This document shows, in pieces, positions 796 to 36,027 of a stretch of 64,000 bases of DNA. Both the position numbers and the translations under genes were made by a program. The stretch is from assembly GCF_988243305.1 (NCBI RefSeq), contig NZ_OZ547136.1; one strand, 5' to 3'. The notes beneath the pieces are model-generated. The model worked only from the letters and a program-made list of their open reading frames with translations, was not told where the DNA came from and did not search any database. The stretch's first letter is position 1, and every line of letters begins with the position of its first letter.

Positions 796-1644
796 CTATA
801 CTGAAGAAGAGACTTTTCCCGCATAATGTTTCGCAATAATATCATTTAGCCGATCAACCAGTTCTGGTTTCCTGAACGTGATATGTGCGGAGCCCTTCTT
901 AAAGTATCTGATGCTGAACATCTCATCTTCATAGCACGCTTTGCCCTGAACGGAGCGGATGTGATCATCCAGACGAATAGTGATGTTTTCCCGGTTGTCG
1001 GGGATTGGTTTGCCGCTGAACAGGTGCAGCATTCTTTCCTGGTCGGCAAGTCTATCTGCCTGTTGCCCGGTGATAAGATGCAATCCCCATCGGTCCCATC
1101 TCACCAGATTGTTGACGATAATTTTATTGCCAAATTTACAGGGGGAGTTGGTTTTGTAATTCCAGCTCAGCCCTCTGAAGAGGTTGATCACACCTCGCTC
1201 AAACACTTCATCCTTATTCTGGTGCAGTTGTTCAAATGTGCTCAGGATATTCGCCTCGCTGATTTCCGGAAAATTATCGTACTCCAGTGACCGGTACCAT
1301 GTATCACGGGCCTGTGCATCCATTAATGACAGCATCCCTGAACGTTGCATCAGGTCACGCCAGATTTCGCGGTCAAGGTTGCGGGTGATAGCTTTCATTG
1401 CGGTTTCCGTTTTATCCATCAGCCAGCAGCCGCAGCGAAAATCCTGTTTCATGGCCCAGTCCCGGGCGGTTTTACCTCCAATACTTTCTGTCAGTACTGA
1501 GATTTCTGCCAGTTGCCGGATAAGTGTGTCGATTTGCAGCAGCGCACTCTTTCGCACAGCTAGAATGTGGCTGACTGAGGTGGAGCAGATAACGTCCGTA
1601 TGCCCGTTGACCACTTCCGGACGGGAGGCTGTGATTTCAGACAT
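796..1644 (-). CDS. Hypothetical protein (282 aa) at the distal end of the CP4-like backbone
   Basis: Long ORF, same strand as the backbone genes; family not recognised. Confidence 0.5.
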   Translation of the reverse strand: MSEITASRPEVVNGHTDVICSTSVSHILAVRKSALLQIDTLIRQLAEISVLTESIGGKTARDWAMKQDFRCGCWLMDKTETAMKAITRNLDREIWRDLMQRSGMLSLMDAQARDTWYRSLEYDNFPEISEANILSTFEQLHQNKDEVFERGVINLFRGLSWNYKTNSPCKFGNKIIVNNLVRWDRWGLHLITGQQADRLADQERMLHLFSGKPIPDNRENITIRLDDHIRSVQGKACYEDEMFSIRYFKKGSAHITFRKPELVDRLNDIIAKHYAGKVSSSV

Positions 1645-1728: not shown

Positions 1729-1926
1729 TCACCGGTTCTGTTGCAGAAACTGCACCTGGCGCAGGGTACGGATATCTTCCCTGGCCTGTTCAATGCAGGG
1801 CAGCAGTGCTGCTGAATCCGTGTTATCCTCATCGTTGTCGAAGATAATCCCTGATTCGCAGTCAATATTGTCCTGCAGCCACGCAATCAGAATATCCAGC
1901 GCCGTTTCTGTGGTTAATAATTTCAT
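1729..1926 (-). CDS. Small hypothetical protein (65 aa, MKLLTTETALDILIAWLQDN…)
   Basis: In-frame internal Met of a 144-aa ORF; lies just downstream of the YeeW-like gene. Confidence 0.35.
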   Translation of the reverse strand: MKLLTTETALDILIAWLQDNIDCESGIIFDNDEDNTDSAALLPCIEQAREDIRTLRQVQFLQQNR

Positions 1927-1945
1927 CCAGTGTCTTTTGTCCTGA

Positions 1946-2434
1946 TTACCAGTCGAAAGTGGGTAAATCCGGCAGACATTCTGCGCTGGCATCCAGATGA
2001 ATGAGACTGACGCCATAACGCCGGATGAGAGTGACAACCAGACGACGGAACGTTTTTGACAGGCCCAGGCGTTTAAGCTGCAGAATCGGGTATGACCATG
2101 CATTGGCACGTAACAGATATCCGCTGCCTGTAAAATGAATCCATTCTGATTCGCCGGTGTCATTCGTCTGATGTGACAGCGAGTACAGCCAGGCGTTGTC
2201 TGTTTCCGTGATATGTGCGGTGCTGCAGCGTATACCGCTCAGGGCAGCAGAGGGGGGCATGCTGTCAGTTGCGGTCCGGTCAGATGCATCAACAACACGA
2301 AGGGAGTAGCCATTATCGCAGACCACGTTAATCAGTTCGGCAAGCTCAATACCATCGATGTCAACGACAATGCGCCCCATGTTCAGCGCCTGCACGTTAA
2401 TGCTGTCGGCCTCCAGCGTCAGGGCCAGTTTCAT
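1946..2434 (-). CDS. YeeW-like hypothetical protein
   Basis: 162-aa ORF directly downstream of cbtA, the position YeeW-type genes occupy in CP4-44-like elements. Confidence 0.5.
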   Translation of the reverse strand: MKLALTLEADSINVQALNMGRIVVDIDGIELAELINVVCDNGYSLRVVDASDRTATDSMPPSAALSGIRCSTAHITETDNAWLYSLSHQTNDTGESEWIHFTGSGYLLRANAWSYPILQLKRLGLSKTFRRLVVTLIRRYGVSLIHLDASAECLPDLPTFDW

Positions 2435-2478
2435 TGTTTCGCCTCCGGATGCTTACCCAGGATAATGTCATTTACCGT

Positions 2479-2808
2479 TCAGTAGTGGCTGCGGGTCATC
2501 AGGCCGGTTGCCCGGCGGGCCCGGAGAATATCAATGCTGTTGATTAACTGCGACGGGGCTCCTGCGCTGAATCCCGGCTGGTCAGTTCGTACCAGCGCGT
2601 ATTTTTCAACGAGAAAGTTCACCGCATCACACAGTGAAATCCCTGCCTCAATATGCTGCTCAATCACACGTTCATCAGCGAACGGTGTGTCATTCAGCGT
2701 GAGGCCATAGTGCTGGTCCAGCAGTCGGGTGAGCAGTGTCTGCCAGATGGTGACGGGAGACGGGCAGCCCGATGCCTCCCGTACGTGAGTGTCGGGTAAT
2801 GTATTCAT
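2479..2808 (-). CDS. cbtA: CbtA/YeeV-family toxin (type IV toxin-antitoxin, cytoskeleton inhibitor)
   Basis: …[52 protein letters not shown]… matches CbtA/YkfI/YpjF; start taken at MNTLPD. Confidence 0.8.
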
Positions 2809-2854
2809 CTTAAGTTCTCTGTAACAGGTGGTGATAAAGGGGAGATATCCGGGG

Positions 2855-3232
2855 TTATACGGTGATTGTGGGCGCTGCCGGTGTCGGATAAACAGCCAGA
2901 TAAACGTAACCACAACTGCCAAGGGTATCGGCTTCGCAGGTCAGCCCTTTCGCATACAGTGTGACGGTATGCTGATGACGGGGATTCAGTTCACCGCCGG
3001 TGAGCATGAGTTCCAGTTGTTTCATCAGCAACGGAAAGGCCTGGTCCAGATGGTACGCATCCGCGTCGCTGAACCGGCCTCTGATACCGGCGCGGTCGGC
3101 AAGGTAATGCAGGCGGTTACCCTCCTGTACCAGTCGGGCCCCGAAACAGGGCGTCACGGTGCAGGGCCCCCCCCACCAGGGGCGGTCGTGATTGTCGTCG
3201 GGATGCGTTGTCCCGGGGAGTGTGTCTGACAC
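2855..3232 (-). CDS. cbeA: CbeA/YeeU-family antitoxin
   Basis: [21 protein letters not shown]…[12 protein letters not shown]… matches CbeA/YafW/YfjZ; directly upstream of cbtA. Confidence 0.8.
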
Positions 3233-3307
3233 GATAAAGTCCTCACAAAAAATCGGTTAAGAATGGTCCGGTGGTGGCGATAATGCTGCTCATCAGAATG
3301 CCCTGAT

Positions 3308-3529
3308 TCAGTTCAGGGTGACGCTCATCAGCCGGACATACGGGCCAAAACTGTCCTTATGGCGTTCAGCAAACACGGCCAGCACTCCGGGAATATCCTG
3401 CACTTCACGACCGGTATACGCCCCGGCACTGCCGTGCCAGCGGTACTTACCGGTGCAGAACGGAAAAAGACGGGATGCCGGATGCTGTTGGTGAATACGC
3501 ATGGCTTCACCACGGGTGATGATTTTCAT
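3308..3529 (-). CDS. DUF987 protein (YeeT/YkfH-like)
   Basis: 73-aa ORF between RadC-like and cbeA, the conserved position of this family. Confidence 0.65.
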   Translation of the reverse strand: MKIITRGEAMRIHQQHPASRLFPFCTGKYRWHGSAGAYTGREVQDIPGVLAVFAERHKDSFGPYVRLMSVTLN

Positions 3530-3597
3530 GATGTGATACCTCTGAAGACAGAAGATAAAAGTGAAAACAGGTATGATGTGGTTGTGACGGTGACGGG

Positions 3598-4089
3598 TTA
3601 AAGCAGACCGTGTTCCGCAAAGGAGAAAACCTGGCTGCCACCGATTATCAGATGGTCCGGTACCCGGATATCCACCAGGGCCAGTGCCTGTACCAGACGC
3701 TCAGTGATAAGGCGGTCTGCCTTGCTGGGGGTGACTTCACCGGACGGGTGATTGTGCGCCAGCACCACGGCAGCGGCATTGTGGTACAGGGCGCGTTTAA
3801 TCACCTCCCGGGGATGGACTTCTGTGCGGTTGATGGTGCCAGTGAAGAGGGTTTCACCGGCAATCAGCTGATTCTGGTTGTTCAGGTACAGCACCCGGAA
3901 CTCTTCACGCTCCAGCCCTGCCATGTTCAGAATCAGCCATTCCCGTGCCGCACGGGTGGAGGTGAAGGCCACGCCGGGTTCATGAAGATGGCGGTCCAGG
4001 GTTTTCAGGGCCCGTTGAATGAGGCTGCGCTCGCCGGGCGTCATCTCTCCGGGCAGAAAGGAAAGCTGTTGCATTGTACTTCTCTCCAT
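3598..4089 (-). CDS. RadC-like JAB/MPN-domain protein (YeeS/YkfG/YfjY family)
   Basis: HNHPSG JAMM motif; conserved CP4-type context. Confidence 0.85.
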   Translation of the reverse strand: MERSTMQQLSFLPGEMTPGERSLIQRALKTLDRHLHEPGVAFTSTRAAREWLILNMAGLEREEFRVLYLNNQNQLIAGETLFTGTINRTEVHPREVIKRALYHNAAAVVLAHNHPSGEVTPSKADRLITERLVQALALVDIRVPDHLIIGGSQVFSFAEHGLL

Positions 4090-4563
4090 TCAGTCGATGA
4101 TGCGCATAATGGCGCTGCATTCCGGATGCTGCAGGGCGTAATCCCGCAGCCGGTAATAATGGACCGTCATGGCATAACACTCCGTACGACAGGCATGATG
4201 ACTGTACGTCATCAGACAGGCAGCAATGCCGGCAGCTTCCGGACTCATTTCAGCGCGGTTACCGTTCATGGCATTGAACAGTACCCATGTTTCGTCATCA
4301 TCGTCATCCGGTTCGGGTGCCATAAATGCCCCGCCGTTGTTCAGGGTGTACAGATTCCAGATACCACCGCAGTAGTCTTCGCACAGACGGTCCATCCAGC
4401 CGAAGACACGGGGCTCCAGGGTCACCCACTGTGGAATGAGGCCAAAGTGCTGCGGCCAGAAGCTGATGCGCTGTTCATCAGGGACGAGGGTGGCAACCAG
4501 TTGTTGCAGGTCAGTCTCCGGTGCACAGGCTGAAGAGGTGGTGTTCTGAGACAATGTTTTCAT
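4090..4563 (-). CDS. Antirestriction protein, KlcA/ArdB family (YfjX-like)
   Basis: Acidic DDDDDE stretch and conserved context upstream of radC-like; start taken at MKTLSQ. Confidence 0.7.
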   Translation of the reverse strand: MKTLSQNTTSSACAPETDLQQLVATLVPDEQRISFWPQHFGLIPQWVTLEPRVFGWMDRLCEDYCGGIWNLYTLNNGGAFMAPEPDDDDDETWVLFNAMNGNRAEMSPEAAGIAACLMTYSHHACRTECYAMTVHYYRLRDYALQHPECSAIMRIID

Positions 4564-4656
4564 GTATGAAATCCTTGTAATGTGAATAAATGAGAGGGAG
4601 TAAAGGCCGGGGGCTGACAACATCACGTTCATCACTGAGCGTGAGACCCGGTAATG

Positions 4657-4902
4657 TCAGGGATGAATGATATTCGGCTGAAATTCCGGACAGCCGTACG
4701 CGTAACCGTTCCGGTCACAGACGGATGGCCAGATGCCATTGCCTGTACTCAGTCTGCACAGACTGAGTTCTCCGGGACGGTAAAGCAGACGGGTACACCA
4801 GGCGCACAGGTCATCATCAGAAATGGAACGACACCCCGGCAGCGCCTCCGGGGCGTCGGGTGATTCTGGTACCTGAATCACGCCTTCAGGGATATGTTTC
4901 AT
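4657..4902 (-). CDS. Small hypothetical protein
   Basis: ORF between DUF932 and antirestriction genes; family not recognised. Confidence 0.3.
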   Translation of the reverse strand: MKHIPEGVIQVPESPDAPEALPGCRSISDDDLCAWCTRLLYRPGELSLCRLSTGNGIWPSVCDRNGYAYGCPEFQPNIIHP

Positions 4903-5723
4903 CAGCGCATACTCTCCAGCAGCGTTTCTGCCATTACCCACAATGCGCGGTTGAGCTTAATATCGGTGTCGATGCTGTGAATGGCACGGGTGTGGATACG
5001 TTTTCCTCTGGCACTGCGCCCGGAAATCCCCCCTTTCAGCATATTCTCCTGGATGGTCTGATAAGCACTCCACAGGTCCTTTCCGTAATCCTCCCGGCGT
5101 CGTGGCGTCAGAATGTCGGCGGTGGTGACGGGCTGATGTTCGTCACCATAACGGTAAGTCAGTGCCGCCTGTGCCAGCGCCTGGCGTGCCGGTGGCGGCA
5201 GGACCAGCGACTGCATGGCATCACGCTTCTCCTCTATCCGGTCAAAAACCCCCACCACCTCGTAAGCCCCTTCGATAACTTTCTCCACTACATTTCCCCG
5301 GTGCGGAACACGCACTTCCCCCAGAGACTGACCACAGACGCACCCGTTCTGGCAGACGAACCTGAAGTAACCCGGCAGCATCTGGTAGCTGGATGAACCG
5401 TCATGAGAGTTGAGCAGAATAATTTCAGGGACATGCTGACCGGTTATCTGTCCGGCCCGCCGCAGACGCAGCATGTGTTTTGTGTATTCCCGGCGACCCG
5501 GGTCACGCACACGTGTCTGGCAGGCGAAGAATGGCTGAAAGCCTTCCCGCTGCAGGCTTTCCAGTACGGTGATGGTGGGAATGTACGCATAGCGTTTACT
5601 GCGGGAAGTATGCCGGTCTTCACCGAAAATACTGGGAACATAGTGCATCAGTTCTTCGTGTGTCAGCGGACGGTCACGGCGTATCTGGTTTGCAGCATAA
5701 CCAAAACGACTGGCTAGTCGCAT
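4902..5723 (-). CDS. DUF932-family protein (YfjQ/YafZ/YkfF-like)
   Basis: 273-aa ORF with the recalled family signature (…EIILLNSHDGSSSYQ…); conserved CP4-type gene. Confidence 0.7.
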   Translation of the reverse strand: MRLASRFGYAANQIRRDRPLTHEELMHYVPSIFGEDRHTSRSKRYAYIPTITVLESLQREGFQPFFACQTRVRDPGRREYTKHMLRLRRAGQITGQHVPEIILLNSHDGSSSYQMLPGYFRFVCQNGCVCGQSLGEVRVPHRGNVVEKVIEGAYEVVGVFDRIEEKRDAMQSLVLPPPARQALAQAALTYRYGDEHQPVTTADILTPRRREDYGKDLWSAYQTIQENMLKGGISGRSARGKRIHTRAIHSIDTDIKLNRALWVMAETLLESMR

Positions 5724-6115
5724 AATTTGCTCCTTATCGGTGGTTAAGATTTACTGGTGTAATAAATGAAAAAGCCACGTCTCCCGGAGAAGACGCGGCC
5801 TGATGGACGAAATTAATGAGGTTTATTGTCTGAGAAGACCGTCACTGGCGAACCTTCCGGCGTCAGTCTCTGCGTTGCGGATAACCCGACGGAAATGAGT
5901 TCCCTGGTCATCGTCGATAAACACATTGCGGTAAGCTGTTGTGATGACAACAGCCTGCTCGCGTGAGAAAGGGACTTCGGGCAATAAACGTGACATACAA
6001 CCAGACCTGTATTTGGTTCCCTGAAAATATAAGTCCCTGTCATCATGGCAGAGCCGTATTTACTTTTGATATCAATAAATTAATAACGCGAAGATGAACC
6101 GCATAACTTACGCCT

Positions 6116-6379
6116 TTAATTTGTTTTGTTTACGTAGTCCCTGACCAGGTACGCGAATTCGTGAACGCCAGTTTCACCAAACCAAATCAGGTAACCAGGG
6201 TCGATGTTGTAATAGTAACCAACGACTTTATGCGTTTTTGGGTTATAGAGTGTTACGATATAGTCCCAGCCGCAGGCGTGGGCTTTACAACCGCCACCTT
6301 CTACCCAGGTCGTTCCGTTAATGTTTACAGGATACGCACCACCATCAGGACCATCCATATAGCCGTCTTCCCCAAACAT
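6116..6379 (-). pseudogene. Possible C-terminal remnant of a gene truncated by IS1
   Basis: 87-aa ORF whose upstream side runs into the IS1 end at 6547; no credible start. Confidence 0.25.
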
Positions 6380-6561
6380 TCCGTTTAACCCAACAGGGTT
6401 TAATGCTTTGTCGATAGCAGCTCTGTAGGTAGCGTCACCTTCGTATAACTCGTACGTTGTTGGACATGCACCAGGCTGGTCAGCCCGGGCTTTTGAGTCG
6501 CATTTAAGTGTCTGATTTACAGTGGCGGCGTTTGTGTCAGGACTTAGGTAATGACTCCAAC

Positions 6562-7065
6562 TTATTGATAGTGTTTTATGTTCAGATAATGCCCGATGAC
6601 TTTGTCATGCAGCTCCACCGATTTTGAGAACGACAGCGACTTCCGTCCCAGCCGTGCCAGGTGCTGCCTCAGATTCAGGTTATGCCGCTCAATTCGCTGC
6701 GTATATCGCTTGCTGATTACGTGCAGCTTTCCCTTCAGGCGGGATTCATACAGCGGCCAGCCATCCGCCATCCATATCACCACGTCAAAGGGTGACAGCA
6801 GGCTCATAAGACGCCCCAGCGTCGCCATAGTGCGTTCACCGAATACGTGCGCAACAACCGTCTTCCGGAGCCTGTCATACGCGTAAAACAGCCAGCGCTG
6901 GCGCGATTTAGCCCCGACATAGCCCCACTGTTCGTCCATTTCCGCGCAGACGATGACGTCACTGCCCGGCTGTATGCGCGAGGTTACCGACTGCGGCCTG
7001 AGTTTTTTAAGTGACGTAAAATCGTGTTGAGGCCAACGCCCATAATGCGGGCTGTTGCCCGGCAT
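6562..7065 (-). CDS. insB: IS1 InsB (expressed as InsAB' by frameshift)
   Basis: 167-aa IS1 transposase ORF overlapping insA. Confidence 0.9.
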
Positions 7066-7259
7066 CCAACGCCATTCATGGCCATATCAATGATTTTCTG
7101 GTGCGTACCGGGTTGAGAAGCGGTGTAAGTGAACTGCAGTTGCCATGTTTTACGGCAGTGAGAGCAGAGATAGCGCTGATGTCCGGCGGTGCTTTTGCCG
7201 TTACGCACCACCCCGTCAGTAGCTGAACAGGAGGGACAGCTGATAGAAACAGAAGCCAC
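6984..7259 (-). CDS. insA: IS1 InsA
   Basis: 91 aa, [23 protein letters not shown]… zinc-finger/HTH InsA. Confidence 0.9.
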
Positions 7260-7425
7260 TGGAGCACTTCAAAAACGCCATCATACACTAAATCAGTAAG
7301 TTGGCAGCATCACCTAAGTGCTTTTACGATGAATTTCATGATAACTCTCCTTATGACATTAATAAATGCGTTAATCTTAAATCTCACCCAGGTAATATAT
7401 ATCTGAAAATATTTTCAACAACACC

Positions 7426-7450
7426 AGACAGGAAAAACACCACCACAGGC
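7426..7450 (-). terminator. Putative rho-independent terminator downstream of the patatin gene
   Basis: On the minus strand CCACC-N6-GGTGG stem followed by a T-rich tract, about 25 bp after the stop codon. Confidence 0.4.
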
Positions 7451-7473
7451 GGTGGCGTTTCTTTGGGGCGTCT

Positions 7474-8544
7474 TTATTTAATCCGGGCCATCGCGCTTCT
7501 CAGTGCCAAATCTGCCTCTTCCGTTATCTCCAGACTTTTCTGCAACACCGTTTCTGACCGGGACAGTGCCTGACGTGCTGCCAGCGGTTTCCGGATATGC
7601 TCCATCGTCAGCATCGTGTCCTCGTAGCCCTGCTGACGCCAGGCGTCGGTATGTGCCGACGTGAAACTGAGCAGACCGCCACTGTTGCCACCATCACCTG
7701 CATATTTCAGCCTTTTCCGGGGACGGATCTCAAGGATTGTGGTGTCCGGAAAAGCCTGGCGATCCCATAAAGAACCGTCACTCAGATGCGACACAATCAC
7801 CATATTGCATCCGGCATCGACCAGAGGCGTTACAGGGGTATTTCCCTGCATATTTCGCCATCCTCCCATACCACCATCACCGAACATTGTCCCCTGAACC
7901 TCACGGGGACGGAACAACAGGGGCAGTGCGGCTGACGCAAGCAGAGCCTCTTTCTGCTGTCCGCGGGGCAGACTCTGGATATGCTGAAAAACGGCGTTTT
8001 TCGTGGTTCCGGAACCCAGTTCAGCACGAATGCAGTCAATAATATCCTGCATGCCCCCTTCTGTGGGGTACAGCGACACATACAGCGGTAGCCCGTCTGC
8101 CAGAGCATCTGTATCAAGATAATGATCCATCAGCGCTGTCAGGGGCCCATCTGACAACAACGGCTGAGTCATCGGATTGTCGAAGCCGTTGATTATCGAT
8201 ATATGGCGAAGAAGTGTCGTAAGCAGTGCTCCTGCACGTCCGGGGATCTGGCAGAGGTTCATTGCCTGGAACAATTTTTTCAGCAATGAAAAGTAAACCG
8301 ATCGGTTTACCGACAGCACCTGATTATTCCCAAGATGATCCCAGAGCGCCTCCAGGCGTACGGCAGCTTCTGACAGATCGGGAGAGGCCGCGATAATGGC
8401 ACCATTGAATGCGCCAATGCTGGCCCCTGAAACCATGCTGATCTGTGTACCACACTCTGCCAGTGCCTTAACCACTCCCGCCTGATAAGCGCCCACCGCC
8501 CCACCGCCGGACAGCACCAGCCCTGTTTTTATTTCTATACTCAT
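7474..8544 (-). CDS. Patatin-like phospholipase (356 aa)
   Basis: GGGAVGAYQAG glycine-rich oxyanion motif, GASIGA (GxSxG) nucleophile, DGG catalytic Asp; start overlaps upstream stop (ATGA). Confidence 0.85.
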   Translation of the reverse strand: MSIEIKTGLVLSGGGAVGAYQAGVVKALAECGTQISMVSGASIGAFNGAIIAASPDLSEAAVRLEALWDHLGNNQVLSVNRSVYFSLLKKLFQAMNLCQIPGRAGALLTTLLRHISIINGFDNPMTQPLLSDGPLTALMDHYLDTDALADGLPLYVSLYPTEGGMQDIIDCIRAELGSGTTKNAVFQHIQSLPRGQQKEALLASAALPLLFRPREVQGTMFGDGGMGGWRNMQGNTPVTPLVDAGCNMVIVSHLSDGSLWDRQAFPDTTILEIRPRKRLKYAGDGGNSGGLLSFTSAHTDAWRQQGYEDTMLTMEHIRKPLAARQALSRSETVLQKSLEITEEADLALRSAMARIK

Positions 8545-9446
8545 GCAGCCCCCTTCTGAAATATTTCATCGACCATACTTTCAGAGAGGCGTTCTGCAGA
8601 GCAGAGACGGGGCATGCGAACCGGTAAGTGTTCTGCAGCCTGCGTGGTTGACCAGATCACCGGATGCTGCTCTTCACTGCACCAGTCCCCCAGCCAGTTA
8701 ATCGCGTCATGCCACTCGTTATCTGCCTGCTCCCGGCCCTGACCACCAAGCCAGTCCAGAGTGTTCAGACGCACGGTTGCACTACCGCCACTCTCCTGTG
8801 CCATCTGCGTTAATGCTTTATGTCTGAGAATATCCAGTAGCTGGTTAACCTGGCCTGTTTCGCCCTGACGTATCACATCACCAAACGCGCCCCAGCGAAG
8901 CTCTTCAAGTGCCACATAACAACGTCCGGCAGGGGAAAATGACGCATATCGCCCGGCGCTCCACCAGGAGAATATCTGCTCAAGATGTAACTGCGCCCGC
9001 TGAACCAGGTCAACACGGTGGAGTTTTTCTTCAAGATGATTCAGTTTCTGGTGAACCTGATCGGCCAGGGTGAGTAACTGCTCCCGCGTATCTGCGGAAT
9101 AATGCGCCAGCCTGGCAGTATCACTGACCAGTGAACTGACCCTGTCGTTTACCCGGGTAATCGCGTAGTTTGTGGTGGCAAGTGACGTTGTCAGCTCCGT
9201 CAGCCAGCGCAGGGACGCCTCAACGCCCTGTGCAAGCGAAGCATTGATGGCATTCTGCCGTGCAGCACCTTCGCCGCTCAGCCCCTCTTTTAACCGCCGG
9301 AAGAACGTGCGCTCTCCGGCCGTACGGATATGCTCCTGTGCAACATCAATACCGTTTGCGAAATCAACCACAAATTTTTCAGGAAGACAGGTGAGTACCT
9401 GACATACCCGGTTATCAGCAATTTGTTGAATAAATGGTGAAGTCAC
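8541..9446 (-). CDS. Hypothetical protein, partner of the dynamin-like GTPase (possibly YjcZ-like), 301 aa
   Basis: ORF overlapping both neighbours by 4 bp; no TM segments; YjcZ-like assignment is only by synteny with crfC(yjdA)-yjcZ. Confidence 0.6.
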   Translation of the reverse strand: MTSPFIQQIADNRVCQVLTCLPEKFVVDFANGIDVAQEHIRTAGERTFFRRLKEGLSGEGAARQNAINASLAQGVEASLRWLTELTTSLATTNYAITRVNDRVSSLVSDTARLAHYSADTREQLLTLADQVHQKLNHLEEKLHRVDLVQRAQLHLEQIFSWWSAGRYASFSPAGRCYVALEELRWGAFGDVIRQGETGQVNQLLDILRHKALTQMAQESGGSATVRLNTLDWLGGQGREQADNEWHDAINWLGDWCSEEQHPVIWSTTQAAEHLPVRMPRLCSAERLSESMVDEIFQKGAA

Positions 9447-11827
9447 AGCATTGTCTCCAGTTCTTCCCTTAACGCCTTACTGTCAGTAATGAGCTCAGGA
9501 ACCCTTTCATTTAACGCCTGAAGACGCCCGGTCAGCCGTTCCTGCGCCTGCTGATCGCGTTTATGATCTTCAGAGCTCTGAATCAGCGTGTTACGCAGCT
9601 GTTCAACTTTCTCCCTGAATGTACAGAAAAAGGCATCGATTTCCTGGCGGACGGGCTGGTTAATATCCTGCTCAATGGATGCCTGCAGCTCCCCGAAATA
9701 TGCCCGGGTCAGTGACATCACTTCCTCTCTGACCTTGTTGATATTGATCACGCTGCGGCTCACATCCACACTGTACTCTTTCCAGCCCCAGTCACTGGTG
9801 TTTGCCCATCGACAAAGCGTACCCCAGACACCATCCTGTCGACAGCGACGGGTTACTGTCTCCGTTCTTTCCTCCATAAGCGCGCTCAGATTTGTTTTTA
9901 CTGCGAGCCGGGTCTGTAACTGGCTGACTGCCGGAAAACTGATTTTTACAGTGAAACCTTCATCCTCCAGACGGGCATTGATGCGTCCGGCAATATTTTC
10001 TGTGGCGTACAGGGCCGTACCACGAAAACCTGTTTCAATACCCCTGACGATTTTTTCCAGTTCAGGACGGAACTGTGCTTCAGCCTCACGGTGCAGGCTG
10101 GTCACGGTCGATTCGATTTGCGTCATCAGTTCAAGGGCTTCCCTGCGATCACTGAATTTTATTTCGGGGCTGTCCGGATCAAAGTCCCGCATCCTGTCAT
10201 GCTGATTTCCGGTTCCGAAAATATCGTGAAAGAAAGCGAATGCGTTTCTCTCCCGGGGCTGCGCTGAATTTTCTTCCTCCAGCATTTGCTGTTCTTTGCG
10301 TTTACCGCTTCTGAAATAGTCATTCAGCTCCTCTTCCAGTGAGGTGCAGACCCCCGTCAGTAATTCCCGGGTTCTGGCATCGATCTCCTCCATGGCCATT
10401 CTGACATCAGCGGTCACCTGCTCCTGACAGTCCGCGATTTCCCGGATATCCGCAAGCAGGCTGGTGATATGCGACTGCAGTGACTGAATGCTTTGCTGTA
10501 GCCCCTGATGGCGTAATGACAGATATTCGCTGACATTTTCCGCATTCTGCATCAGTTTTGCGGCGGCAGAATCAACCGCCAGTGCCGCCGCTCTGGAATG
10601 GGAGCTCTGTATGACTTCCGTTATCAGTTGATCGATAAGTGAGCCTTCCCACAGGTCTGTCGCCCCTTCGGTTGCCATTTCACTGTCTTTACAGACGTAT
10701 TCTTTTTTCATGCGACCGAAGGCTTCCCTGACAAAATCATCGACCCAGGCTTCATCAACAGGAAGGGTTCTGTTTTTCCGTAACTCATGAAGCGCACGGT
10801 TAGCCAGGTACGCCTGACGTGATGAGCCTGGATAAACGCGGGAGGCGGGCAGCACATCGCTGTTCAGCATTGCCGGAACTTTCTGGCGTACGGCATCTGC
10901 CCCATCGCCATTGCGGTCTTTCTCATCAAATTTATTGACCAGCACAAACAGGCGGCCAGCTGATACGTCAGCAATGGCATTAAGCTCTTTACGGACGTCT
11001 TCATCCGCTTTTGAGTTCATCTGGGTGTAATCCATCACCGCCAGCACCGCAGAGGCTTTCTGCAGTTGATCCCGCATCATCACTTCCATCTGCGGTTGTC
11101 CGGCCTCATTAGGGCCGGGGGTATCCAGCAGTGTGAGTGTTCCCTGGCATGGATCCATCCCCACCAGATGGCTGAATTCCACGTCGATCACCGGCAGTTT
11201 CTGCACTTCTGCGTATTCATCAAAAGGAAACTCACTCCCCATTGCCGCAGCAAGGCGAACCAGATCGTTTAACGATGCCAGTCCGGTAAAAATTTCCTCC
11301 TCCCCGTGGTATTCATTTTTGAGCCAGCCATCATTTGCCAGAATATCCAGCAGTTCGCAGGTATCCCCGGTTTGCTGCAGGGTCTGTGCGACTTGCTGTC
11401 CTGCCGGGGTGTCGAGTTTTTGTTTCAGTGTGCTTAATAAATTGCGGACGGGCTGAATATGTTCCAGATGGAGGACCGGCTCAGTTTTTCCGGGAACGTG
11501 GCGGATGAGCGTCGGTACAGAGGTCATGGGGCGGTTACGGTTAGGCAGAATTTCCTGCCCCACAATGGCGTTGATGGTGGTTGATTTACCTGCTTTCATC
11601 GTGCCGACAACAGCCAGCACCATCTCCCTGCGGGCGGTTTTGATTTGTTCGCCCTCCAGCTCCTCAATTCTTTTCAGTGCTTTCTGTTTATCAAAAAGCA
11701 GTCTGTTTTCGTTCTTACTGTCAGATAACACATCCGGCTCATCAACCATTTGCCGGAGCAGATTAATGTTCAGTTGCAAAAGTCGGTCGGCTTCATCACA
11801 AAGCAGGGCGATGTTCTTTTCGTGCAT
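9443..11827 (-). CDS. Dynamin-family GTPase, CrfC/YjdA-like bacterial dynamin-like protein (794 aa)
   Basis: G1 GTMKAGKST, G3 DTPG, G4 NKFD; N-terminal GTPase region resembles E. coli CrfC as recalled; long coiled-coil-rich C-terminus. Confidence 0.85.
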   Translation of the reverse strand: MHEKNIALLCDEADRLLQLNINLLRQMVDEPDVLSDSKNENRLLFDKQKALKRIEELEGEQIKTARREMVLAVVGTMKAGKSTTINAIVGQEILPNRNRPMTSVPTLIRHVPGKTEPVLHLEHIQPVRNLLSTLKQKLDTPAGQQVAQTLQQTGDTCELLDILANDGWLKNEYHGEEEIFTGLASLNDLVRLAAAMGSEFPFDEYAEVQKLPVIDVEFSHLVGMDPCQGTLTLLDTPGPNEAGQPQMEVMMRDQLQKASAVLAVMDYTQMNSKADEDVRKELNAIADVSAGRLFVLVNKFDEKDRNGDGADAVRQKVPAMLNSDVLPASRVYPGSSRQAYLANRALHELRKNRTLPVDEAWVDDFVREAFGRMKKEYVCKDSEMATEGATDLWEGSLIDQLITEVIQSSHSRAAALAVDSAAAKLMQNAENVSEYLSLRHQGLQQSIQSLQSHITSLLADIREIADCQEQVTADVRMAMEEIDARTRELLTGVCTSLEEELNDYFRSGKRKEQQMLEEENSAQPRERNAFAFFHDIFGTGNQHDRMRDFDPDSPEIKFSDRREALELMTQIESTVTSLHREAEAQFRPELEKIVRGIETGFRGTALYATENIAGRINARLEDEGFTVKISFPAVSQLQTRLAVKTNLSALMEERTETVTRRCRQDGVWGTLCRWANTSDWGWKEYSVDVSRSVININKVREEVMSLTRAYFGELQASIEQDINQPVRQEIDAFFCTFREKVEQLRNTLIQSSEDHKRDQQAQERLTGRLQALNERVPELITDSKALREELETML

Positions 11828-11884
11828 TATTTAACCTTCCTGAGACGCATTTTCATGACAACCACGGAGGAGGTCATTTACTAC

Positions 11885-11910
11885 AAACGATCGTTTATAA
11901 CGATCGATAT
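11885..11910. promoter_or_regulatory. Palindromic operator-like motifs upstream of the dynamin operon (AAACGATCGTTT, CGATCGAT)
   Basis: Perfect 12-bp palindrome plus adjacent palindrome in the 199-bp gap between the GTPase stop and the dynamin start. Confidence 0.3.
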
Positions 11911-12026
11911 ACTCTATTAACTTGAGAAACACAACGCAAGGGGACAACCCGGGTATGGCTGCGTTTGCATAGTGTTTTCATGGAGTTAAAAATCTGTAAC
12001 AATAGCCTGGTACATCACCACCGGGT

Positions 12027-12899
12027 TCAGAAGAAAATCCAGTTCCATACCGCGCGGGCAACAGAGACCACCGAGTCACGGACGGCTCGCAGAACCGTAC
12101 GAGCCACAGAGGCAACACAGACGCTCTCCGCTGTGTCAAATATCCGGTCCACCGCACCGGTAAACTGTTCACGGGCCTGAGAGCGGACAGACTCCGTGCG
12201 CAGTTCGTCCTGCAGGCGGGTCATCAGGGGGCTGGCGGCATGGTCGGGAAGCGCTGTCATGAGCGCACTGACCAGCGTATCCAGTTCCCAGCCGGTGCAG
12301 GCCGATACGGCCACAACCGGATGTACGGGCCGGAACAGCCGGAATACCGCCTCCGTTTTCTCACGAATGTTCTGTGCCTGTGCGGGAGAAGGCTGAATGC
12401 CGGCCATATCCCATTCATGGCAGGGCTCCGTTTTGTCGGCCTGCGTCACCACAAACAGCACCTGCTGATGTCCCCGGTGCAGGATGTGTCGCCAGAAATA
12501 CTCATCCACAGACAGGGCACGGTCATCGGCTTTAATCAGCCACAGTACCAGGTCAAGTTCAGGCAGAATGTCACGGTACAGGGCTTCATACTCTGCATCC
12601 CTGTCCCGGCTCTCGCCCACCCCGGGCAGGTCAGTGATAATCATGCTGTGACCGTGGCCACTCAGACGGAAGCGCCGCACTTCCCGGGTGCCGGCGTGAA
12701 CATCACTGACCGGGGTGACCTCCCCCTGAAACAGCGCATTACAGAGTGAGGATTTACCGGCCCCGCTTTTACCCATAATGCCAATCACGGGTTCGTGACT
12801 GGTGAGTTTGCGCAGATGTTCCTGGATGTGACGGGAAAGTGAGTAAGGCAGGGAGGAGAGCGGTTTTTCAATTGCCTCAATGGCATCAGACGGATTCAT
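12027..12899 (-). CDS. YfjP/YeeP/YkfA-family GTPase
   Basis: P-loop GIMGKSGAGKSS and DLPG motifs; conserved CP4-type gene; start taken at MNPSDAIE. Confidence 0.8.
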   Translation of the reverse strand: MNPSDAIEAIEKPLSSLPYSLSRHIQEHLRKLTSHEPVIGIMGKSGAGKSSLCNALFQGEVTPVSDVHAGTREVRRFRLSGHGHSMIITDLPGVGESRDRDAEYEALYRDILPELDLVLWLIKADDRALSVDEYFWRHILHRGHQQVLFVVTQADKTEPCHEWDMAGIQPSPAQAQNIREKTEAVFRLFRPVHPVVAVSACTGWELDTLVSALMTALPDHAASPLMTRLQDELRTESVRSQAREQFTGAVDRIFDTAESVCVASVARTVLRAVRDSVVSVARAVWNWIFF

Positions 12900-12983
12900 A
12901 CATGTATTCCCGGTGAAAAAAGACAAAACCCCCGCACACCGGAAAGGTGGCGGGGGACTCACAGAGATAATATATGTCTGAAA

Positions 12984-13901
12984 TTATCTGGAATGTCGGT
13001 ACCTTTTATACTCTTCAACAATCAGGTCATGCAGCATTTCGCCGGTACTGAGTCTTCTGACCCTCGATAATTCTTTGAGCTGCGCCCTGGTTTCTGCGTC
13101 AAGAAAAAACTGTACATTGACTTTATCTTCCTGCATTTTTTTGTACTTGCGCTGCGCCTTGGCCTTATTGAAACTGTTTCTGAAATTTTTTATATCGTCA
13201 GGTGAGGTGAGTGTACAGGTAACCCATATGTCAAATGAAAGGTGAATTGCGTGGTAAATATCAGCAGAACCAGGAAAACTGGCCAGTTTTTCCAGTGCAA
13301 TATTTTTTCCCTTCAAATAATTCCATGTCCATATGCATTCATGTTCGTTCTCCGGGAGGAGGTAACTGAAAGGACTCTTTGATTTAAATGCCCGTATCCA
13401 TCTGTCTTTGGTCTGGATTATCCACTCATCCCGCAAATTCTTATCAGAAAGAATATCGAGAACTCTGAGTATTTGTCTGAACTGTGTCGATGAGTCCGAC
13501 GGGAAGGCATTCCCTTCTAAATACTCTTCTTTAAGATACAGTTTATTCTTTTGAAGCAAGTCTGCACTTATTTTTGCCCTGTTATTCTGGATAAACTGCA
13601 TCAACAGATACCAGGAAAATAAGCATGCGCGTTCACTGCCCGCGATCCAGGATATTTTTTCCAGGGGGACCAGGAAGGCCTGGGCCTTCAGACGCATACC
13701 AGAAATGATTTGTTCAAGTTCAAAATCTGAAAGTGTGATGTTCAGATTTTCTCTGTTTTTTTTTATGTAAGCGATAAAACGTTCCGGGGGATCATAAACA
13801 TTAAGGGGCAGTACGGAGATATTACGCTCTCCAAGATAATAAGAGTAATACGCATTTGTTCTTTCATTCATAACCTTATCCGACAAAATTTTCTGAACCA
13901 T
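12984..13901 (-). CDS. Hypothetical protein (305 aa), AT-rich, with C-terminal ribbon-helix-helix-like segment
   Basis: Long ORF with low-GC codon usage; C-terminus VQFFLDAETRAQLKELSRVRRLSTGEMLHDLIVEEY resembles CopG/Arc-type RHH. Confidence 0.55.
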   Translation of the reverse strand: MVQKILSDKVMNERTNAYYSYYLGERNISVLPLNVYDPPERFIAYIKKNRENLNITLSDFELEQIISGMRLKAQAFLVPLEKISWIAGSERACLFSWYLLMQFIQNNRAKISADLLQKNKLYLKEEYLEGNAFPSDSSTQFRQILRVLDILSDKNLRDEWIIQTKDRWIRAFKSKSPFSYLLPENEHECIWTWNYLKGKNIALEKLASFPGSADIYHAIHLSFDIWVTCTLTSPDDIKNFRNSFNKAKAQRKYKKMQEDKVNVQFFLDAETRAQLKELSRVRRLSTGEMLHDLIVEEYKRYRHSR

Positions 13902-35300: not shown

Positions 35301-35623
35301 TTTTTCCAGAGGCGGTCGAACTCCGCCTTCGCAAAATAAGCGGAAGCCTGGCGAAGGATATCGTTACTGCGGCGCAGTTCACGATTTTCACGTTCCAGCT
35401 CTTTCAGACGCTGACGTTCAGCGGTGGTGAGCCCTCCATCACCGCCCCCGGTATCCCGCTCATGCTGGCGAACCCAGACACGCAGAGTCTCCGGCGTACA
35501 GCCAATCTTTGGGGCAATGGAACAAATTGCCGCCCACTGTGAGTCATACTCATCCTGACTTTCCAGAACCATACGAATCGCCCGCTGACGGACTTCGGGG
35601 GAAAAACGAGTATTTTTAGTCAT
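35297..35623 (-). CDS. IS629 OrfA
   Basis: [60 protein letters not shown]…. Confidence 0.85.
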
Positions 35624-36027
35624 CCTGTTTACCTCTTTCTCAGGGAGTTTAGTCTCCAGGATTCCCGGGACGGTTCAGTTTCCATTCATGCTTTTAATCT
35701 TTCCCAAAATAACTAAAGCCAGATGTAACAGGCGAACATGGTAAAGTGTCCGCATATTTGAACCTCGCTGATAACGCCTTCACCTGACAACATATTGTCA
35801 GTGCTTCAGCATGTTAAGCTGTTCTTCTGAAAGGTCGGTAAGCTCCAGGACCATATTCCGACTTATCCTGGAAGGATGGCTGGTTCAGACTTCAGGATAT
35901 GGTTGAGGGTTACCTAGTGATGAAGTCTCTTGATCAGGAGATCTGATCAAGAGACAGCACTGGGTGGGGGTGACCATCTCATATCTATGCCTCCATTTGG
36001 CAATCATCAATTTTGACAGAAATAAAG

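Follow-up and report, generated by a model that had tools for sequence, protein, structure and literature searches.

GATC-centred palindromes upstream of a dynamin-family operon: probable remnants of an agn43-type Dam/OxyR switch

The window (the whole stretch of DNA analyzed here, 64,000 nucleotides) carries on its minus strand, in the order of transcription, a gene for a 311-aa GTPase of the YeeP/YkfA/YfjP family (12027..12962), a 199-bp gap, and three further genes, encoding a dynamin-family GTPase of 794 aa (9443..11827), a member of the YjcZ/RdcB family (8541..9446), and a patatin-like phospholipase (7474..8544). An IS1 element comes next. The first GTPase matched Pfam MMR_HSR1, and its counterparts in E. 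coli relatives are annotated as “GTPase family protein”; the three other proteins matched Pfam Dynamin_N (E = 7e-19), YjcZ (E = 2e-71), and Patatin (E = 1e-24), respectively. The start of the YjcZ/RdcB-like gene overlaps the stop of the dynamin gene, and the start of the patatin gene overlaps the stop of the RdcB-like gene. The dynamin-family protein is a paralogue of CrfC/RdcA (YjdA), scoring 560 bits against the NCBIfam CrfC model, under the cutoff of 1146. When the operon was searched with PADLOC, only weak matches to LeoBC/LeoA and to phospholipase effectors were obtained, and no recognized defence system. The IS1 copy lies at 6562..7288, just 3' of the patatin gene, and in relatives a truncated hypothetical gene follows the IS1 position (window about 5800..6400).

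E. coli BR1220, which among annotated relatives is the closest (98.3% over 24 kb), has these genes in a CP4-44-type backbone with the order HTH gene, hypotheticals, GTPase, cargo, DUF905, DUF932, antirestriction, JAB, DUF987, CbeA/CbtA, and more genes. The rest of the island in the window matches the CP4-44 backbone according to the BR1220 annotation, with DUF5983, DUF957, and DUF4942 also represented. In the CP4-44 of K-12, the corresponding cargo slot is occupied by flu (agn43).

The gap between the GTPase and dynamin genes (11828..12026, with the stop of the upstream ORF at 12027) had been noted in a preliminary description for a perfect 12-bp palindrome, overlapping CGATCG and ATCGAT palindromes, and an AGGAAGG ribosome-binding site. 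Direct reading of the sequence confirmed the length of the gap and all of these elements: AAACGATCGTTT at 11885..11896, CGATCG at 11901..11906, ATCGAT at 11903..11908, and the ribosome-binding site at 11835..11841 (minus strand), 7 nt upstream of the dynamin ATG. The order given earlier was that of the plus strand; along transcription, the CGATCG/ATCGAT palindromes come first, then AAACGATCGTTT, and then the ribosome-binding site. The two palindromes are the arms of a 19-bp inverted repeat, CGATCGTT-ATA-AACGATCG (11888..11906), and both are centred on GATC, the target of the Dam methylase, with the two GATCs 13 bp apart.

Taken simply as palindromes, these sequences stand out little. Perfect 12-bp palindromes number 32 in the 64-kb window, where Markov shuffles give about 17, and inverted repeats with 8-bp arms number 25, where shuffles give 6.6; the chance of finding one in a 199-bp gap is about 0.1 for the palindrome and 0.02–0.08 for the inverted repeat. 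GATC pairs no more than 13 bp apart occur nine times in the window, against about 10 times in shuffles. The significance of the sites comes from homology and conservation, not from palindromy. Elsewhere in the window (35927..35954), a perfect 21-bp inverted repeat, TTGATCAGGAGATCTGATCAA, has three GATCs within 17 bp and the flanks GTCTC/GAGAC. It is intergenic, between ORFs ending at 35623 and 36139, and resembles two head-to-head IS50/Tn5 inside-end-like sequences (CTGTCTCTTGATCAGATCT).

A promoter can be traced across the gap by alignment with agn43. On the minus strand, a −35-like hexamer, TTGCGT (11934..11939), aligns with the agn43 −35 element TTGTCC in alignments A1 and A2, and its CTTG core is invariant upstream of dynamin, cah, and flu. 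The −10-like hexamer TAGAGT (11911..11916, minus strand) follows after 17 bp; it reads TAGAAT in agn43 and in the longer form of the gap carried by relatives (hereafter, the long form), and the sequence TAATAGA is invariant in all ten sequences of alignment A2. The geometry, consisting of the −35 element, 17 bp, the −10 element, 5 nt, and the G of a GATC, is identical in the window locus and K-12 agn43. The hexamers and their spacing are thus conserved with agn43, but the hexamers are weak, and a consensus promoter scan made no call in the gap, the −35 match (3/6) being too weak. As judged from the alignment of its −35 and −10 elements with their agn43 counterparts, the dynamin operon is likely to have the independent promoter that the preliminary description presupposed.

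The promoter-proximal GATC (11902..11905) corresponds to GATC-I and GATC-II of the long form fused into one. By analogy with agn43, transcription is predicted to start at its minus-strand G, position 11905, which would give a 5'UTR of 78 nt (11905..11828). In the K-12 record, the annotated 5' end of the isrC RNA is the G of GATC-I, 6 nt past TAGAAT, and the spacing in the window is equal. Wallecha and colleagues reportedly placed the agn43 transcription start in 2002 at this same G, with an OxyR(C199S) footprint from −16 to +42, and the annotated isrC 5' end agrees with that start. The second GATC of the window (11889..11892) corresponds to GATC-III; it forms the centre of AAACGATCGTTT, lies 13 bp from the first, and is invariant in 10/10 sequences of A2.

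No terminator is predicted between the GTPase and dynamin genes, and therefore read-through from the former into the dynamin operon is possible. A terminator scan did flag CGATCGTTATAAACGATCG followed by TTTGTAGTAA, and in the predicted fold of the leader this sequence forms an 8-bp hairpin at the 5' end and CCUCC pairs with the ribosome-binding site in a second helix, so that the inverted repeat might be imagined to act in RNA, as a weak intrinsic terminator of the GTPase gene or as a 5' stem-loop of the dynamin mRNA. We regard this as very unlikely. The hairpin stem has four G-C pairs among its eight and a poor T tract (tail UUUGUAGU); the fold energy of the 5'UTR is not significantly beyond that of shuffled sequences (z = −1.76; 14 of 200 shuffles folded as well); and a search of 11000..13000 against Rfam at E ≤ 1 gave no match, IsrC included. 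Neither a G+C-rich hairpin with a U tract, nor a significant fold, nor an Rfam family was found. Moreover, flu and cah keep the GATCs but differ in the lengths of loop and arms, consistent with a constraint at the DNA level. Within the predicted 5'UTR, a CCUCCUCC tract at 11866..11873 (minus strand CCTCCTCC) pairs with AGGAAGG (11835..11841) in the minimum-free-energy fold. It could be an anti-Shine-Dalgarno element, although the fold is not significant; the region of the tract is invariant in all relatives and hence carries no covariation signal.

The window and its long-form relatives align continuously with the K-12 yeeP–flu region, from the 3' end of the GTPase gene through the −35 and −10 elements to the GATC box (A1 and A2). 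In A1, the homology joins the 3' end of K-12 yeeP and the DNA downstream of it to the 3' end of the window GTPase gene and its downstream DNA. Both homology and synteny with the agn43 switch were thus observed, in A1 and A2 and in the CP4-44-like context. At agn43, Dam and OxyR compete, which results in heritable ON and OFF states of Ag43 expression: where the GATCs are unmethylated, OxyR binds them, represses transcription, and keeps Dam away, and once methylated they no longer admit OxyR (PMC3764049, PMC4872104, PMC13337833). The K-12 box reads TAGAAT-aaaac-GATC(I)-15 nt-GATC(II)-9 nt-GATC(III). The dynamin locus shares with it the position downstream of a YeeP-family GTPase gene, the alignable −35 element, −10 element (TAATAGA), and GATC box, a first GATC 6 nt after the −10 element, the 13-bp distance between GATC-II and GATC-III, and OxyR-type dyads that overlap the GATCs. 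The two loci differ in that the cargo of agn43 is an autotransporter, whereas here it is an operon of dynamin-like, RdcB-like, and patatin genes; the 5'UTR of the dynamin locus is 78–96 nt, without an IsrC-like leader or terminator; GATC-I and GATC-II are 19 bp apart with an extended N17 arrangement in agn43, and 18 bp apart with a compact N7 arrangement in the dynamin long form; and the window retains only two GATCs, after an 18-bp deletion.

GATC-II, GATC-III, TAATAGA, and CTTG were invariant in the ten A2 sequences, which represent three types of cargo (dynamin, cah, and flu), while the spacers and flanks varied. GATC-I was intact in all seven three-GATC sequences of A2. In E. albertii (locus L006), four substitutions have accumulated around the three GATCs and none within them. 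The idea that the palindromes are chance occurrences without function draws on the abundance of 12-bp palindromes and close GATC pairs in the window, but the sites are position-by-position homologues of those in a switch that was defined experimentally, and they do not vary among three cargo contexts or in two other species. We consider chance highly improbable because of this homology; the palindrome statistics themselves are weak.

The junction in which the GTPase gene, the switch, and the dynamin gene adjoin was found in 1,981 of 5,426 complete E. coli genomes (~36%, about a third), as well as in E. albertii. Nearly all carriers have a gap of 217 bp, three GATCs, and an OxyR site that matches the consensus at 16/20 positions, and 47 of 48 sampled full-length E. 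coli records were 18 bp longer than the window region. This long form reads TAGAAT-acatc-GATC-14 nt-GATC-9 nt-GATC, the extra 18 bp bringing the third GATC. The short form occurred in only 5 of 1,982 full-length records, and all seven loci encoding a dynamin protein identical to that of the window carried the 217-bp form. In the A1, A2, and A3 alignments, the net deletion of 18 bp falls at 11910..11912 and has removed ATACATCGATCGTTACTAT, which contains GATC-I and OxyR site B. Judged from these comparisons of sequence, the window copy is a deletion derivative of a three-GATC element. One relative with a dynamin protein identical to that of the window (L129, GCA_032611155.1, positions 1284..1500; included in A3, not in A2) has GATC-I mutated to GATT.

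The short records occur in differing backgrounds and with differing junctions (A2). In ETEC6335 (AATACATCGATCGTTATAAAC) and 50EVA (AATGCATCG...), they are clean deletions between ATCGATCGTTA direct repeats (L125 and L126), and the junction of the window reads AGAGTATATCG... Because the records differ in both background and junction, the 18-bp loss has occurred independently, at least twice and probably three times. ETEC6335 also has a G>A change directly after GATC-III.

The OxyR-binding potential of the region was scored against the consensus ATAGnTnnnAnCTAT-N7-ATAGnTnnnAnCTAT given in PMC2909390. A match at 16/20 positions (ATCGATCGTTACTAT-N7-ATCGTTATAAACGAT) was obtained for the long forms of both E. 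coli 32-4 and E. albertii, and the maximum over the 64-kb window was 15/20, reached twice; 16 was never reached. The flu, cah, and Citrobacter loci scored 16–17/20 with N17 spacing, where site A overlaps the −10 element and GATC-I and site C spans GATC-II and GATC-III. From work of Toledano and colleagues in 1994, the N17 spacing is reportedly what reduced OxyR would be expected to use, in an extended arrangement. GATC-I and GATC-II of the dynamin long form are separated by 18 bp, not 19, and the A and C dyads therefore lie 31 bp apart, compared with 32 bp in flu and cah; its best register is the compact N7 pair of sites B and C. OxyR may therefore bind the dynamin long form with a geometry that differs from that at agn43. 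In the window, two dyads remain. Site C, ATCGTTATAAACGAT (11890..11904), matches ATAGnTnnnAnCTAT at 8/10 positions, is homologous to site C of agn43 and cah, and, in both motif scoring and inverted-repeat scans, forms the core of the 19-bp inverted repeat; site A', ATAGAGTATATCGAT (11903..11917), also scores 8/10 and overlaps the −10 element. The offset between site A' and site C is only 13 bp, compared with 22 or 31–32 bp in intact relatives. No in-register pair of dyads (N7 or N17) covers the GATCs of the window: the best full site scored 13/20, a score equalled at 10 other places in the window. Likewise, the window box contains two GATCs (at 11889 and 11902) and not three within about 36 bp, whereas three GATCs and in-register OxyR features are present in the long form of nearly all relatives.

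On the basis of homology with agn43, we consider it probable (roughly two chances in three) that the palindromes mark the two Dam sites that survive from an agn43-type Dam/OxyR switch lying before the dynamin operon, in a copy that is most likely crippled. In the intact form, with its 217-bp gap, the three GATCs would lie near positions +1, +19, and +32 relative to a sigma-70 promoter. The sequence, its homology and conservation, and the deletion and its rarity were observed directly; OxyR binding, competition with Dam, the start of transcription, and what the deletion does are inferred. An OxyR tetramer on the unmethylated GATC box would cover the −10/+1 region, block RNA polymerase, and shield the sites from Dam (OFF); if Dam methylated the sites first after replication, OxyR would be excluded and the operon transcribed (ON), and each state would be inherited through replication. 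In the window, an 18-bp deletion between ATCGATCGTTA repeats has taken one GATC and one OxyR dimer site, leaving dyads 13 bp apart where 22 or 31–32 bp would be needed, and the −10 element has changed from TAGAAT to TAGAGT. Because a GATC and an OxyR site have been lost, the dyads are out of register, and the −10 element has changed, the window copy is most likely poorly repressible by OxyR and roughly constitutive, probably weak, and not phase-variable.

Whether two GATCs could suffice can be considered in light of the gtr operons (phage P22/Salmonella) and opvAB, where GATC pairs 13 bp apart likewise lie in one OxyR dimer site, and methylation keeps OxyR off just as bound OxyR keeps Dam off (PMC2909390, PMC4856963); for gtr of P22, the location of the pair inside one dimer site has been demonstrated experimentally (PMC2909390), a precedent that also speaks for the agn43-type reading of the box. 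These regions differ from that of the window in that they cannot be aligned with it, contain four GATCs in two pairs, and place OxyR upstream of the promoter at either an activating or a repressing position, unlike the window box, which lies at and after +1 and, by homology, would only repress. The short form might still work as a Dam/OxyR switch, with OxyR on the remaining dyad or dyads, methylation blocking it, and the rates perhaps altered: site C keeps its 13-bp GATC pair inside one 8/10 dyad, as does each gtr half site, a second 8/10 dyad overlaps the −10 element, and the recurrence of the 18-bp deletion in at least two other backgrounds could mean that it is tolerated or useful. However, OxyR is a dimer of dimers that needs two in-register dyads (PMC2909390), and those of the window are 13 bp apart; the 13/20 score of the short form is nothing special within the window, and the form is very rare. 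We therefore think a working two-GATC switch unlikely, though less so than the other alternatives discussed, and favor the view that the agn43-type switch of the window is crippled.

The preliminary description had proposed that the palindromes place a potentially toxic operon under repressor control and had suggested an RHH-tailed protein encoded nearby as the repressor. In part, this agrees with our results: the region is promoter-proximal, the homologous sites of agn43 are repressor-bound, and the site most likely binds a repressor. By homology, however, that repressor would be OxyR competing with Dam, and the arrangement would be not a simple operator but a switch between heritable ON and OFF states. 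The proposed protein, of 305 aa (12984..13901, minus strand), has a plausible RHH-like C-terminal segment (VNVQFFLDAETRAQLKELSRVRRLSTGEMLHDLIVEEY) and is encoded two genes upstream, and dyad symmetry beside a promoter would fit the operator of a dedicated, island-encoded repressor that silences a toxic operon. The protein had no match in Pfam, NCBIfam, or PADLOC, and no support for its role was found. The same palindromes are present at the loci of Ec32-4, O157:H7, and E. albertii without the 305-aa gene, so that the two do not co-occur as such a pairing would predict; the gene is found at ≥95% identity in 1,408 of 5,426 complete E. coli genomes, against the 1,981 with the switch–dynamin junction; and the dyads fit the consensus for OxyR and share homology with the proven OxyR site of agn43. 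A dedicated repressor of this kind is thus quite unlikely, and OxyR in competition with Dam remains the candidate that we prefer.

The switch also precedes other cargos. In E. coli O157:H7 strain 8368 (L003, positions 1807..10364), the order is GTPase, switch, cah, dynamin, RdcB, and patatin, cah being an Ag43 homologue. This locus has the same island backbone, dynamin operon, and three-GATC switch behind the GTPase gene as the window type, but its switch precedes cah, and the dynamin operon stands behind cah after an unlike 110-bp spacer; in the window type and about 1,981 genomes, the switch adjoins the dynamin gene directly. The dynamin operon may be co-transcribed with cah in O157. About 480 E. 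coli genomes match the dynamin start only and not the window-type upstream region. We also considered an origin of the window-type junction by simple deletion of cah from an O157-type island, which local alignments did not support: the local homology between O157 and the window extends only through about 15 nt past GATC-III and over the last ~15 nt before the ATG.

A scan of contigs with the pattern CGATCN{10,13}ATCGATCGNNNNNNNCGATC returned at least 120 loci, swamped by high-GC genomes rich in CGATCG, and among the matches listed only E. albertii and Citrobacter werkmanii (L004, BBMW01000009.1) were relevant. The latter has, on the minus strand at about 7130–7260, an agn43-like promoter and a three-GATC box with spacings of 19 and 13 bp, whose OxyR sites A and C together score 17/20. 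The box lies directly upstream of a gene for a 191-aa membrane protein, which is followed by a SLATT-like gene (weak match) and a SMODS nucleotidyltransferase gene (PF18144, E = 1e-33); the ORFs lie at 6555..7130, 5481..5990, and 4705..5484. Judging by this gene content, the agn43-like switch module seems to drive a CBASS-like cargo in Citrobacter.

In reviews, pap-type fimbrial operons and agn43 are the site-specific, Dam-dependent epigenetic switches of E. coli (PMC11741434). The literature that we consulted, including the ST131 (with supplements), O145, O111, and SMALR methylome studies, contained no mention of this locus or of its Dam/OxyR element, and an olaquindox study that names crfC, rssA, and yjcZ gives variant calls only. 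As far as its sequence indicates, the locus is a known type of switch with a new cargo, of which the window holds a rare truncated allele. If the long form does switch, it would be a third such locus in E. coli beside the pap-type operons and agn43, present in ~36% of complete genomes and in E. albertii, and its cargo, a cytoplasmic or membrane GTPase and a phospholipase, would not be a surface structure. This would explain noisy expression of the dynamin-operon genes between cultures, and it would provide a handle on the function of an uncharacterized RdcA/RdcB paralogue system. Such switching would further show movement of the switch from one cargo to another. The short allele of the window would be a natural mutant with which the number of GATC and OxyR sites needed could be tested. 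More tentatively, and with some doubt, the agn43 Dam/OxyR switch may be a portable module of CP4-44-type islands, which in about one-third of E. coli would impose heritable ON/OFF expression (bet-hedging) on a dynamin operon that may be a costly membrane-remodelling or anti-phage system, which in Citrobacter precedes SLATT/SMODS cargo, and which recurrent repeat-mediated 18-bp deletions, like that of the window, would lock genetically.
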